Positions 18,706 to 23,719 of a DNA stretch of 64,000 bases are shown piece after piece. Position 1 is the stretch's first letter, and every line of letters starts with the position of its first letter. Location of the stretch: the NCBI GenBank assembly GCA_016839585.1, contig JAEOTZ010000071.1:1-64000 (forward strand), in the 5' to 3' direction. This stretch comes from Promethearchaeota archaeon (GTDB taxonomy: Archaea; Asgardarchaeota; Lokiarchaeia; Sigyniarchaeales; SOKP01). The notes beneath the pieces were generated by a model, which did no database searches, was not told where the DNA came from, and saw only the letters and a list, made by a program, of their open reading frames with translations. The position numbers were made by a program, and so were the translations under genes.

Positions 18706-21540
18706 TTATTTCCGTATCTTGAATCCTCTTTTCTTTCTAATATTCCACTTTCTTACTTCATCCATTACAGATACGCTGAAAGCTCCAAGAAAAAGAGTAA
18801 TCCAATAATAAGGGTGAAACAGTGGAATAACATGAAATGCTAATCCTAATGGTGTAAAAAGAATTAATAATTGGAGCCCAAGAGATAAACCTGTAGCCCA
18901 GAATAGATGTTTATTTGGAAAGAGATAAAATGGCTTTATATTGGAAGTACACGTATAAACAAACAATAATTCACATATAACTAAATTCGTAAACACAATA
19001 GATTGTGCTAATGACATCGCATATAAATTTGCATCAGTACCCGCAGTTACAAAATCAGTTGTTAATTTCGGATCAATTCCCGCTTCCGCCCATGCTGGGA
19101 TTAATACAGACCATAGAAGTAAATAGAGTGTTATATCAGTTATCGAAGTATATATTCCAAGGAGTAAAACAGGCCCCTTTATCTCTGGAAGCAAAGTAAA
19201 CCCTTTTCGTGGTTTATCTTTCATTACATCAGGATCTGTTGGAGTGAGACCTAGAACCATAGCAGGAATTCCATCTGTGGCTATATTAAGCCAGAGAATC
19301 TGAATTGGAGCAACAGGAAGTGCAAGAAATACAGTTGAGAAAAGTTTCATAACGATATAAGCTGAAAGAATTAAAAATATTTCATCAAAGTTAGTGCTTA
19401 GCATATATCTGAAGAAACCTTTAGTAGTTTCGAAGATACCTCTGCCTTCCTCTATAGCATTAACGATCGTAGCATAATTATCATCAATTAATATCATTTC
19501 AGAAGCTTCTCGAGTCACTTCAGTTCCTTTGAGCCCCATTGCTACGCCTACATGTGCTCCTTTTACAGCTGGTGCATCATTTACTCCATCTCCTGTCATT
19601 GAGACTATTAAATCTAATTCTTTTAATCTCCTTAAAATTCTTAGCTTATGTTCTGATGTGACTCTCGCAAAAATATCTACTGTTTTAACTCTTTCCCTAA
19701 GCTCATCATCACTCATTTCTTCTAAATCTACTCCTGTAATTGCTTCATCGGATTCAGTTAAACCAATCTCATGAGCAATTGCGATAGCTGTAATTTTATG
19801 ATCTCCTGTAATCATCATTGTTCTTATTCCTGCCATTCTGGCTTCCTCTATAGCATCTTTCACTTCATCTCTCGCCGGATCAATGATACCTGCCAAACCA
19901 AGATATATATAGTCTTTTTCTATTTCATCCTCCTTATACCCCTCATTAAGAGGTTTATAAGCAACCCCTAAGACTCTTAAAGCATTTTTTGCAAATTCTT
20001 CATTTTTGTTGAGAATTATATCTTTTACTTCGTTGATTGGTTTTACTTGATTATCATGAACAGCATGACTAGCATTGATCAACATAATATCTGGAGCTCC
20101 CTTAATTAAGGAATATAATCTGTTATCAATTTTCACTACTACTGACATCATTTTCCTGTCGGAACTAAAAGGTATCTCATCAATCTTCTCTGCTTTAGTG
20201 TCTAACTCCATTTTCATAGCCAACACTTTCATTGAAATTTCGGTTGGATCTCCAACTACATCATTATCATTTGTTCCATCATTTCTCGGTGAAACATTTG
20301 AATTATTACAGAACATACATACTTCTAGATATCTTCTTAAATTATCTTCAATTTGAACCTGTTTACCTTTATCATTAATAATTTTACCCTCAAGTGCATA
20401 ACCTACACCCTCTACGACATATTCCATACCACCTACAAACACTTTTACAACAGTCATTTCATTCTTTGTCAAAGTACCTGTTTTGTCAGAACAAATAACA
20501 TTCACTCTTCCCAATGTTTCTACAGCAGTTAATTTCCTTACTAATGCATTTCTATCTGCCATTTTTCTCATTCCAATACTCATAACTACTGTAATCACAA
20601 CAATAAGCCCTTCGGGAACTGCGGAGACTGCTAAACTTATTGATATTTCAAACGCTTCAACAAGTTCGTCAACATCAAATTCTGTAATTAACAAAATTAT
20701 AAATTCAATAAAAAATACAGCGGCACAGGTTATCAATATGATTATTCCTAACAATTTTCCAAATCTATTTACCTCTTTCTGGAAAGGTGAAAGCTCTATC
20801 TCTTCTTCTTGTAAACTTTCAGCAATTTTCCCTATTTCAGTTTTCATTCCTGTGCCAATTACAATTCCTTCTCCATTTCCTCTAGTAATTATAGTATTCA
20901 TATATCCCAAATTTGTTCTATCTGCTAATATCATTTTTTCTTCTACCGGATTAAGTTGTTTTTTCACTGGTTTTGATTCTCCTGTTAAAATTGCTTCATC
21001 TACAGAGAGAGAAAATTCCTTATAAAGCCTTATATCTGCAGGGAATTTGTCTCCTTCTTCGAATAATACAATATCTCCAGGTACAACATCTTCTACAGCA
21101 ATTTCTAAAACTCTATTTCCTCTCCGTACTTTGGCAAAGTGAGGTGCTAATTTCTTTAAACTCTCAAGAGATCTTTCTGCTTGATATTCCTGATAAAACC
21201 CTAAAATAGCATTAACAATCAAAATTGCAGCAATTACTATCGCATCTGTATATTCTGTTGACCATGACTCTGCTCCAGGTCTACTTGCTTCCCAAGCCCC
21301 TATAATTACTGATATAATTATAGCAAAAATAAGTAGGTAAATAAGAAAGTCTTTAAATTGTCCTATAAATATTTGCAAAGCTGTTTTTCCTTTTTCTTTT
21401 ACTAATTCATTTTTGCCATATATTTCAATTCTTTTTTGAGCCTCTGATTCGATTAAACCATTTTCTATCGAAGTATTAAGTATATTTTCTACATTTTCAA
21501 ATGTCGTTGAATGTGCATGAATTTCTTTTATTTCAACCAT
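18706..21540 (-). CDS. Cation-transporting P-type ATPase (type IIA, Ca2+-ATPase-like)
   Basis: TGES, AVPEGL, CSDKTGTLT, KGAP, MITGD, TGDGVNDAPA, WLNIATDGIPA. Confidence 0.95.
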   Translation of the reverse strand: MVEIKEIHAHSTTFENVENILNTSIENGLIESEAQKRIEIYGKNELVKEKGKTALQIFIGQFKDFLIYLLIFAIIISVIIGAWEASRPGAESWSTEYTDAIVIAAILIVNAILGFYQEYQAERSLESLKKLAPHFAKVRRGNRVLEIAVEDVVPGDIVLFEEGDKFPADIRLYKEFSLSVDEAILTGESKPVKKQLNPVEEKMILADRTNLGYMNTIITRGNGEGIVIGTGMKTEIGKIAESLQEEEIELSPFQKEVNRFGKLLGIIILITCAAVFFIEFIILLITEFDVDELVEAFEISISLAVSAVPEGLIVVITVVMSIGMRKMADRNALVRKLTAVETLGRVNVICSDKTGTLTKNEMTVVKVFVGGMEYVVEGVGYALEGKIINDKGKQVQIEDNLRRYLEVCMFCNNSNVSPRNDGTNDNDVVGDPTEISMKVLAMKMELDTKAEKIDEIPFSSDRKMMSVVVKIDNRLYSLIKGAPDIMLINASHAVHDNQVKPINEVKDIILNKNEEFAKNALRVLGVAYKPLNEGYKEDEIEKDYIYLGLAGIIDPARDEVKDAIEEARMAGIRTMMITGDHKITAIAIAHEIGLTESDEAITGVDLEEMSDDELRERVKTVDIFARVTSEHKLRILRRLKELDLIVSMTGDGVNDAPAVKGAHVGVAMGLKGTEVTREASEMILIDDNYATIVNAIEEGRGIFETTKGFFRYMLSTNFDEIFLILSAYIVMKLFSTVFLALPVAPIQILWLNIATDGIPAMVLGLTPTDPDVMKDKPRKGFTLLPEIKGPVLLLGIYTSITDITLYLLLWSVLIPAWAEAGIDPKLTTDFVTAGTDANLYAMSLAQSIVFTNLVICELLFVYTCTSNIKPFYLFPNKHLFWATGLSLGLQLLILFTPLGLAFHVIPLFHPYYWITLFLGAFSVSVMDEVRKWNIRKKRGFKIRK

Positions 21541-21679
21541 GATAACCTCAATTTTTTTTGTTTAGATTTTTATAAAAAATATAATCATAAATTATAATCT
21601 AAATATTGGAATTATTAAATTTAAATTCATTTATAGATATTAGCAAATTAGAATCATAAATAAATAAATTTGGTGATTT

Positions 21680-22027
21680 CTGTTTAAGATAATTTTTTCA
21701 AACTCTGCATTGGAATATATTTATGAACAACAAGAGAATTATTCTTTAAAAAATGATTTTAAAAAACTTGTTATTACAATCTTTTTCTATTCCTCTTCAA
21801 CTTGAACATTGGCCTTTTGTGGTAATGTTATTGAATTAATTGAAAAACAGAAAGTTATTGAAGATGGAGATTTCATTGAATGGACCGATTTGGATAAAAA
21901 TCTTAATATTAATATTTTCATTGAACAAAATTTGCTCCCAGAATTAGAATTAAAAGATCAAATACTCATTGATGTTGCAATTGGGGAAATAAAAGGTGTA
22001 AAAATAGGTATGGTGTTCATAAAATAA
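21680..22027 (+). CDS. Candidate HesB/IscA-like selenoprotein (115 aa; in-frame UGA at 21803-21805 read as Sec42)
   Basis: Frame of ORF 21809..22027 extends upstream through a single TGA to a CTG at 21680, preceded by GGTGA; translation MFKIIFSNSALEYIYEQQ...LVITIFFYSSST-U-TLAFC...NINIFIEQNLLPELELKDQILIDV; SECIS-like hairpin in the 3' UTR. CTG start is uncertain (TTG at 21710 is an alternative). Confidence 0.75.
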
Positions 22028-22032
22028 TCTCA

Positions 22033-22102
22033 GGATGTATATGGTTAATAAAATGAACCAATCTTAAAAATTCTAGAAGATTGGTGATTAACGGTTGCGT
22101 CC
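22033..22102 (+). promoter_or_regulatory. Eukaryote-type SECIS element (kink-turn AUGA...GA core, A-rich apical loop)
   Basis: ATGA 22053-56; ACCAATCTT 22057-65 pairs perfectly with AAGATTGGT 22077-85; loop AAAAATTCTAG; GA 22086-87; lower helices GTTAA/TTAAC and GGATGTA/TGCGTCC. Confidence 0.8.
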
Positions 22103-22231
22103 GTTTATTTTCAAAATAATTCAAATTCTTAAAAAAATAAAATATAAATTTTATAAGCATGATTATTCTTATAAGATAAAACTTAATTTTATCAATAAAA
22201 TTTAGTTTTTTAAATATAACATACAACTTTA

Positions 22232-22831
22232 TTGATTATCATGAGACCATCACGAGTTTTTAGATGGATAATTAGAATATTAATATTAGTGTTAACATTA
22301 TCAGTTACTGCTGTTTCTTTTCTAGGTGGATTTTCTGCTATTATGATACTTTCTAATCCAGATAATATTGGGTTCGACACAGATAATATTGAATTTAATT
22401 TTGATGCTAATTGGACAACTCCAATTGAGATTAATAACATAAATTTTACTTTACCTTTTAATTTTACAAATGCGGGGTATTTTGATCTAGAAGATCTTAA
22501 AGTAAGTTTTCAAATAGGTTTACTTTATTGGCATGTTAATTTAACTGGAGATGGTTTAAATAAGACTAATTTTGTAAAAATATATGATAACTCAACTTCT
22601 TTCCCAACAATTAAAAAAGGAAAAACTTATTATGGTAATTATACAGGAACTAAAAGTGATTTTGGTAATTTCCTAGGAAATTTTCCAGATTATGATGAGA
22701 TAGATGTTATTAAAGATCCAGATTTTGAATTATATGCAAACTTTACATTAAGCTTAACGTATTCATTAGGACTCCATTCAATTAGACTTGGAATTTATAA
22801 CATATCAATATATGAATTTTCAGTAACATAA
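22232..22831 (+). CDS. Hypothetical membrane-anchored protein with a beta-rich extracellular domain
   Basis: One N-terminal TM helix, then N-x-T-rich beta-like segments (NFTLPFNFTNAGYFDL); first gene of a tight three-gene run. Confidence 0.7.
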   Translation: MIIMRPSRVFRWIIRILILVLTLSVTAVSFLGGFSAIMILSNPDNIGFDTDNIEFNFDANWTTPIEINNINFTLPFNFTNAGYFDLEDLKVSFQIGLLYWHVNLTGDGLNKTNFVKIYDNSTSFPTIKKGKTYYGNYTGTKSDFGNFLGNFPDYDEIDVIKDPDFELYANFTLSLTYSLGLHSIRLGIYNISIYEFSVT

Positions 22832-22843
22832 GAGGTTATCAAA

Positions 22844-23332
22844 ATGGGTCCAACTATAAACATAGTAAAAGGTACTATTTTTACTATTATATATGTATGT
22901 TTTACAATCATAATTCCAGTAGTAACATTTTCTTTACTAAGAGGATATGTTGTTGAAGGTTTACCATTAGATTTTACACAGGAAGATTTAAACAATATTA
23001 TATTTTGGGTTACTGCATTGGGATTAGTTATAAGTGGATGTGCTTTCTTCACACATTCTTCACCTAAACAATCAATAAGAAGAGGTTCTTTTGCTTTGAT
23101 CCAAGTATTAGTTAATTGTCTATACTTATGGAGTTATAAATTCTCAGGAGCAACTGAAATAATATTTGATTTAGATATAGGTGATAATTCAGGATTTCTG
23201 AGTTTGAATTTACAACAGATGGTTTTAGTTTATTTAGGAATTTATTTTCTAACTATAGTTCTAAAAGTATATGATGTTATTGATTTTACAATTAATAGAG
23301 AGAAAATCCGATACGATAGAATGAAAGAATAA
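22844..23332 (+). CDS. Hypothetical membrane protein with about 4 TM helices
   Basis: Four hydrophobic segments; GAGG-like ribosome-binding site upstream. Confidence 0.75.
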   Translation: MGPTINIVKGTIFTIIYVCFTIIIPVVTFSLLRGYVVEGLPLDFTQEDLNNIIFWVTALGLVISGCAFFTHSSPKQSIRRGSFALIQVLVNCLYLWSYKFSGATEIIFDLDIGDNSGFLSLNLQQMVLVYLGIYFLTIVLKVYDVIDFTINREKIRYDRMKE

Positions 23333-23347
23333 AGAGGTAGAGAAAAA

Positions 23348-23719
23348 ATGGGATTTTTAGAAATATTAGCTGATATTTTTGGAGCAATTTTGATTTTCTT
23401 AAAACCAATAGTAGAATCAATTGGTGAATGGATGGTTGATTGGATCTCAGCATCAATGGAATTTTTAAAACAAAACTTTAGCAGTGAACTAACTATTTAT
23501 ATTGTAATTTTTATCATTCTGATTGTATCTGGTGTTATTATAAATATCATTTGGCCAGGTGATCGCCCAGGAACAATATTCTCCAAAGGTTTAGATAAAA
23601 TAGAAGAAAAATTCGAAGAAAAATTGGATATTCCAAATGATATAAGGAGATGTAAGGATTGTGGTAATCCAATTGGGGATTCTAGAGTTTGCCCTTTATG
23701 TGGAGCTGAAAATGATTAA
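23348..23719 (+). CDS. Small membrane protein with a C-terminal zinc ribbon
   Basis: TM helix IYIVIFIILIVSGVIINIIW; CKDC...CPLC at the C-terminus; GAGGT upstream. Confidence 0.75.
   Translation: MGFLEILADIFGAILIFLKPIVESIGEWMVDWISASMEFLKQNFSSELTIYIVIFIILIVSGVIINIIWPGDRPGTIFSKGLDKIEEKFEEKLDIPNDIRRCKDCGNPIGDSRVCPLCGAEND

Follow-up and report, generated by a model that had tools for sequence, protein, structure and literature searches.

The hairpin at positions 22053 to 22087 of the 64,000-nucleotide stretch of DNA analysed here (the window) is very probably a lokiSECIS of type I, lying in the 3' UTR of a selenoprotein gene that has escaped annotation. We put the probability of this reading at about 0.9, and that the hairpin functions as a SECIS is predicted with near certainty. 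The geometry of the hairpin is that of the published element, its stem covaries among homologs, it is tightly linked to genes with an in-frame UGA at a Cys-equivalent position, and the genome contains Sec machinery. The core element type was published earlier; what is new is a selenoprotein family and a conserved third arm, both missing from the published lists and texts searched. The features referred to below are as follows.

21672-21676, plus strand: GGTGA, a Shine-Dalgarno-like sequence of putative function, 3 nt before the CTG start
21680-22027, plus strand: hidden selenoprotein gene of 115 aa with a predicted IscA/HesB fold, from CTG 21680 to TAA 22027
21803-21805, plus strand: in-frame UGA, 250 nt ahead of the SECIS core and predicted to encode Sec42
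21818-21820, plus strand: Cys47 of the U-x4-C motif, nearly invariant in alignment A3 and missing in Cys-only paralogs
22025-22027, plus strand: derived early stop, a Lys codon in orthologs, which removes 7 C-terminal residues
22033-22102, plus strand: alternative lower helices (22033-39 with 22096-102 and 22044-48 with 22088-92), exclusive with the side hairpin
22040-22048, plus strand: once Tyr-Gly codons and the ancestral TAA; in many homologs this segment supplies the closing helix with its 5' arm, whose 3' partner is degenerate in the window copy
22053-22056, plus strand: AUGA, 5' half of the SECIS core (AUGU in 3 of 34 homologs)
22057-22085, plus strand: 9-bp stem (22057-65 with 22077-85) and 11-nt apical loop that starts AAAAA and ends AG
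22086-22087, plus strand: GA, invariant in 34 homologs, which makes up the 3' half of the core and is predicted to take part in sheared G-A pairs
22090-22105, plus strand: conserved 3' side hairpin, AACGG / CCGUU, with a 6-nt loop containing a G-pyrimidine

The hairpin core and its class

The initial annotation of this region had placed the ATGA-to-GA hairpin 25 nt after the TAA that ends at 22027, and all of its coordinates are correct, with TAA at 22025-27, ATGA at 22053-56 and GA at 22086-87. The perfect 9-bp stem that it described, closed by AUGA and GA and with adenines on the 5' side of the loop, is present in the sequence; all nine pairs are Watson-Crick and the apical loop occupies 22066-76. 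RNAfold returns the structure as then drawn, lower helices included, with an energy of -21.9 kcal/mol (z -3.47; equalled by 1 of 200 shuffles), and the opposite strand folds worse (-13.5 kcal/mol). Across homologs 95.1% of the cells of the stem are paired, a level reached in none of 500 shuffles and to be set against about 45% in slid controls. The compensatory changes that it was proposed to look for were found at 7 of the 9 stem pairs, each with changes on both sides in the family alignment, the homologs being related so that covariation counts for both the stem and the side hairpin are inflated and their independence overstated. By analogy with eukaryotic SECIS elements, the GA at 22086-87 would take part in sheared G-A pairing. 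An intact G-A tandem is not universal, since AUGU replaces AUGA in three homologs and ACGA does so in one; such cores, at L032, L033, L038 and L053:1648-1736, lie behind intact UGA genes.

Mariotti et al. (2016; PMC4989117) characterise the lokiSECIS by an AUGA, a stem of 9 bp, a loop of 11 nt, five adenines at the start of that loop, a G at its end that usually follows an A, and a GA behind the stem. The window hairpin has all six features, so its type has been known since 2016, and the novelty that had been implied for its geometry was too high. The proposal of a short-stemmed Loki-type SECIS on the plus strand is upheld in every published feature. As in the Asgard type I eSECIS-like elements described in that paper and by Huang, Xiao and Zhang (2024; PMC11227280), the window copy lies directly after the stop codon, behind a conserved in-frame UGA at a Cys-equivalent site. 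It differs in its host gene, which belongs to a family outside the seven listed in PMC11227280.

The description of the hairpin as eukaryote-style can be kept only in part. The AUGA/GA core, the unpaired apical AA and the 3' UTR site are common to the window element and the eukaryotic type I SECIS, but the extension into a double stem is not supported across the family. The upper stem of the window element is shorter (9 bp), and a side hairpin stands in place of the plain helix I and internal loop. An Rfam search with the element returned no SECIS family at E values up to 10 and two chance matches. No L7Ae protein of SBP2 size was found in the genome, where the only two L7Ae-domain frames are of 125 and 133 aa, in agreement with PMC11227280. 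The eukaryotic layout of two stems with a simple internal loop fits the minimum free energy structure of the window copy; family covariation favours the side hairpin. A methanogen-type SECIS was also considered and rejected, the GAA/A bulge under a short all-G-C stem being absent from both the sequence and the consensus fold.

The upstream gene and its linkage to the hairpin

Gene calling with table 11 yields just a 72-aa fragment from 21809. A GGTG(A/G) motif lies ahead of the aligned TTG, ATG, GTG or CTG codon in many homologs, and sigma-70 promoter matches are at chance level. In alignment A3 no column other than that of the UGA is invariant, and three paralogs have TGT (Cys) there. UGA 21803 is predicted to be read as Sec. 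Orthologs read Lys at 22025 and stop at 22046-48. An error-free contig from run X4 of the same study shares the base that creates the early stop, and run X7 has the Lys codon. The gene was found in only 3 of 53 other genomes of its genus and the copy is 7 residues short, so that the window copy may be under relaxed selection. In one ortholog (L010:2001-2324) an A run ahead of the UGA is a base short, which is either an assembly error or a real frameshift.

It is highly improbable that the UGA is instead read as Cys or Trp, or is the true stop of a pseudogene, with a hairpin unrelated to it. Such a reading could draw on the early stop and CTG start of the window copy and on gene callers having translated some homologs with TGA as W; however the W reflects the code chosen by the caller where the DNA reads TGA, and orthologs L017, L026 and L029 use UGA as their true stop. 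Across 10 genera, moreover, the frame is conserved both before and after the UGA, paralogs have Cys at this column, and the hairpin tracks the UGA gene. A TGA=Trp code was rejected.

The association of hairpin and UGA gene is a close one. The hairpin is present in 38 of 38 UGA homologs with a full 3' flank (a set that includes near-identical strains), and none of the three TGT paralogs carries it. Among 17 syntenic loci of the same genus, in which the ATPase lies beside the downstream membrane gene and the Sec gene is absent, 16 are without the element. In genome G219 (L098:1461-1495; G219:C66) the whole Sec gene has been deleted and an orphan SECIS remains, with two stem pairs broken and the side hairpin intact; run X7 has the same deletion joint. 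It follows from the UGA homologs and the 16 gene-less loci that the element comes and goes with the UGA gene. Neither its absence behind UGA orthologs nor its common occurrence behind UGA-free genes, either of which had been named as evidence against a SECIS, was seen in these sets, and the proposal that it independently supports UGA recoding upstream is backed by its position behind UGA orthologs and its absence at Cys paralogs and at nearly all gene-less syntenic loci.

A profile of the family matched 54 of 400 Asgard genomes, which all belong to one family, and 65 of its 67 matches have exactly one TGA; a wider profile matched 64 of the 400, some of them weakly and from other families, orders and classes. 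Tandem paralog clusters occur at three loci (L021, L023 and L024), where the U-x4-C type is accompanied by a Cys-only copy without SECIS; L023 and L024 also have an R-S-U-S type, and every Sec copy has its own SECIS.

Occurrence in the genome and Sec machinery

A strict pattern, requiring AUGA, 9 bp, an A-rich loop of 11 nt with G as its last base, and GA/AA, found six perfect matches in the 3.45-Mb genome, compared with 0-1 (mean 0.1) in each of 10 locally shuffled genomes, which argues that the core is not a product of chance. All six sit behind UGA genes, namely VhuD (two), HdrA, VhuU, the window gene and a small UGA membrane protein. The use of the pattern genome-wide to find further hidden selenoproteins, as had been suggested, thus yielded one in this membrane protein. 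A loose form of the pattern gave 128 matches, mostly chance. An RNA model built from the window family alone also recognises the elements of VhuD, HdrA and VhuU (E 1e-4 to 0.13); a whole-genome search with RNA model R1 was uninformative, scoring 150 of 8184 candidates and missing known elements. The pattern is specific enough to expose missed families, two unlisted ones having come to light in one genome. Because published surveys of Asgard archaea relied largely on homology to known selenoproteins, families such as that of the window could be missed.

SecS, SelB and two selD genes with a UGA score above cut-off in this genome. A PSTK-like gene and, beside secS, a tRNA with UCA anticodon are also present, both below cut-off. 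A search for MvhD in 121 genomes gave only Cys forms among the matches listed. The tRNA-Sec-like gene lies directly upstream of secS (L077; G000:C86:59756-59872, minus strand), where it was missed by ARAGORN and falls below the Rfam cut-off; its T arm contains an insertion that may be an intron. At another locus (L075; G000:C59:33919, minus strand) a SECIS lies directly behind an HdrA-like frame with no VhuD between them, and its AUGA supplies the stop codon.

The second unlisted selenoprotein family is represented at L071:2209-2430, plus strand (G000:C31:25708-25929), with a SECIS at L071:2466. The protein has a basic N-terminus, one membrane helix, a Gly-rich linker and a U-x-C motif. The family has matches, mostly weak, in 37 of 135 family genomes, and both UGA and lokiSECIS were present in 20 of 20 fetched loci. 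Two of these proteins stop just past the Sec, giving them a superficial likeness to SelK, although the topology is probably opposite.

The 3' side hairpin

The two lower helices with which the initial annotation had extended the core are poorly conserved, being 56% and 76% paired in 34 homologs, whereas the same bases form a side hairpin that is 90.4% paired. All four counted pairs of the side hairpin show double changes in these homologs, and RNAalifold recovered it unprompted. Under a strict rule of three G-C pairs it is present in 47 of 68 SECIS elements, where 3.1 would be expected and a site 60 nt downstream gives 2, and a G-pyrimidine lies in or at the edge of its loop in 47 of 47. It is found 3' of the core in the window family, the membrane-protein family, VhuD, VhuU, HdrA and selD. 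A third, closing helix, which would complete a three-way junction, is predicted in most homologs and known elements and is degenerate in the window copy. Neither the side hairpin nor the three-way junction appears in the text of PMC4989117 and PMC11227280, yet the known VhuD, VhuU, HdrA and selD elements of this genome also have the side hairpin, with the junction predicted in most. On this evidence the side hairpin is probably part of the functional element.

Two other readings of this region need to be considered. The first accepts the element as a SECIS, but has the window copy fold as originally drawn, into a eukaryote-like double stem in which a canonical kink-turn replaces the three-way junction in this clade. 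The energy model favours this fold by 7 kcal/mol in the window copy (-21.6 vs -14.5 kcal/mol), compared with 0-3.7 in six close relatives, and it is for this preference and the degenerate closing helix that we allow it a real, if clearly minor, share of the probability. In addition, the early stop frees the 5' arm from ribosomes, and a double change in L003 compensates in the inner helix. Against this, 7 of 7 clade members keep the arms of the side hairpin intact, whereas L012 and L006 have a broken outer helix, and pairing across the family is low for both lower helices, as given above. The energy model, moreover, ignores sheared G-A pairs and tertiary contacts. The conserved codons for Asp-Val-Tyr explain the 5' arm; that of the outer helix is former coding sequence, given that the TAA at 22025 is derived and that orthologs run on to 22046-48.

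The second reading, which we consider improbable, gives the side hairpin a role in terminating transcription or protecting the 3' end, independent of recoding. The side hairpin scores as the only terminator-like site of the region and is followed by a U-rich run; long U tracts follow it in several paralogs, and its survival in the G219 orphan, where the main stem is decaying, could be explained in this way. A terminator does not, however, account for its placement 1-7 nt after the core in all families examined or for the G-pyrimidine loop in every one of the 47, and what follows it is often the 3' arm of the closing helix, not a U run. We retain the side hairpin as a probable third arm of the SECIS.

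Fold and family of the encoded protein

Comparison of the window protein with the sequences of Pfam, NCBIfam and the PDB gave no match. A structure model (pLDDT 88) has IscA and SufA as its top matches; an earlier model from 10 close sequences only had pLDDT 46 and was unusable. The predicted fold is that of IscA/HesB, with 1r94 found by Foldseek at E 6.7e-4 and TM 0.56, the top 12 Foldseek rows all IscA-like, and, for VIA, Z 8.2 and rmsd 3.4 over 91 residues. A Cys relative gave no more than sub-0.9 leads, to PF01521 and PF28096. Classical IscA, an A-type Fe-S carrier, has a C-terminal CxC. This motif is missing from the window protein, which makes a classical carrier role unlikely. The protein could instead be a selenol/thiol redox or metal-binding module, a suggestion that we offer tentatively and at somewhat less than even odds.

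The HesB-like selenoproteins (TIGR01911) and the CC/Se family (NF041239) have in common with the window protein the IscA fold and one Sec, placed in the loop that follows the second strand. The window protein itself matches neither model; its best relative scores 22.1 bits against a cut-off of 66.35 for TIGR01911, and a distant family member scores 38.7 against a cut-off of 40 for NF041239. The window motif is U-x4-C and not UxGP or CxxU, the protein is longer, and, unlike these two families, the window clade occurs, among the genomes searched, only within one family of Lokiarchaeia. The Asgard Prx-like selenoprotein was rejected as a relative, both its thioredoxin fold and its U-x-x-C/U motif differing from those found here. 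Huang et al. (2024; PMC11227280) give seven Asgard selenoprotein families; the window family is not among them, and its motifs are absent from 87 supplement files of that paper. A HesB-like family is likewise not reported among the Asgard selenoproteins discussed in a 2026 review.

Proposed mechanism and resemblance to k-junctions

We propose that, on the mRNA, sheared G-A pairs form in tandem between AUGA and GA below the 9-bp stem, with the A-rich apical loop displayed above it. The element would recruit EFSec/SelB with Sec-tRNA, either directly or via an adaptor, to the ribosome at UGA 21803, and the product would be a 115-aa protein of IscA/HesB fold with U-x4-C in a beta-hairpin. The working element is likely to include the 3' side hairpin, and in most homologs the closing helix would create a three-way junction. 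In the window copy decay of this helix may have left two adjacent hairpins.

In a k-junction, the non-bulged strand of a tandem G-A motif bears an extra helix, so that three helices meet in a three-way junction (PMC4005666, PMC10573300). The predicted topology of the Loki element is similar in that the side hairpin takes the position of the extra helix, on the GA (non-bulged) strand of the G-A tandem. It differs in the 2-4 nt between GA and the side helix, and in the window copy the third helix is degenerate. In view of this spacer, a topology that is predicted only, and the altered AUGA of four homologs, we regard this as a resemblance and not as membership. No paper combining Asgard, SECIS and a three-way junction was found in the searched text of the open-access literature. 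It is conceivable, though on balance unlikely, that the Asgard SECIS is a k-junction-like three-armed RNA whose side hairpin blocks binding of the L7Ae/SBP2 type and docks an archaeal recoding factor, and that the eukaryotic SECIS-SBP2 pair arose by loss of the third arm. If so, the window copy, with its decayed closing helix and competing double-stem fold, would be a natural test case. The conserved third arm predicts that L7Ae will not fold Loki SECIS RNA, as is the case for known k-junctions (PMC10573300). With its fixed G-pyrimidine, it also offers a concrete mutational target for the study of SBP2-free archaeal recognition of a 3' UTR SECIS.

Neighbouring genes

Upstream of the selenoprotein gene, positions 18706-21540 of the window (minus strand) encode a divergent P-type cation ATPase, a homolog of which is present in 34 of 50 family loci. 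The ATPase stays where the Sec gene has been lost, and the association may thus be mere conserved gene order. At 22232-23719 an exported or membrane gene on the plus strand, without a Pfam match, faces two membrane genes on the minus strand, one of which ends in a zinc-ribbon-like tail.
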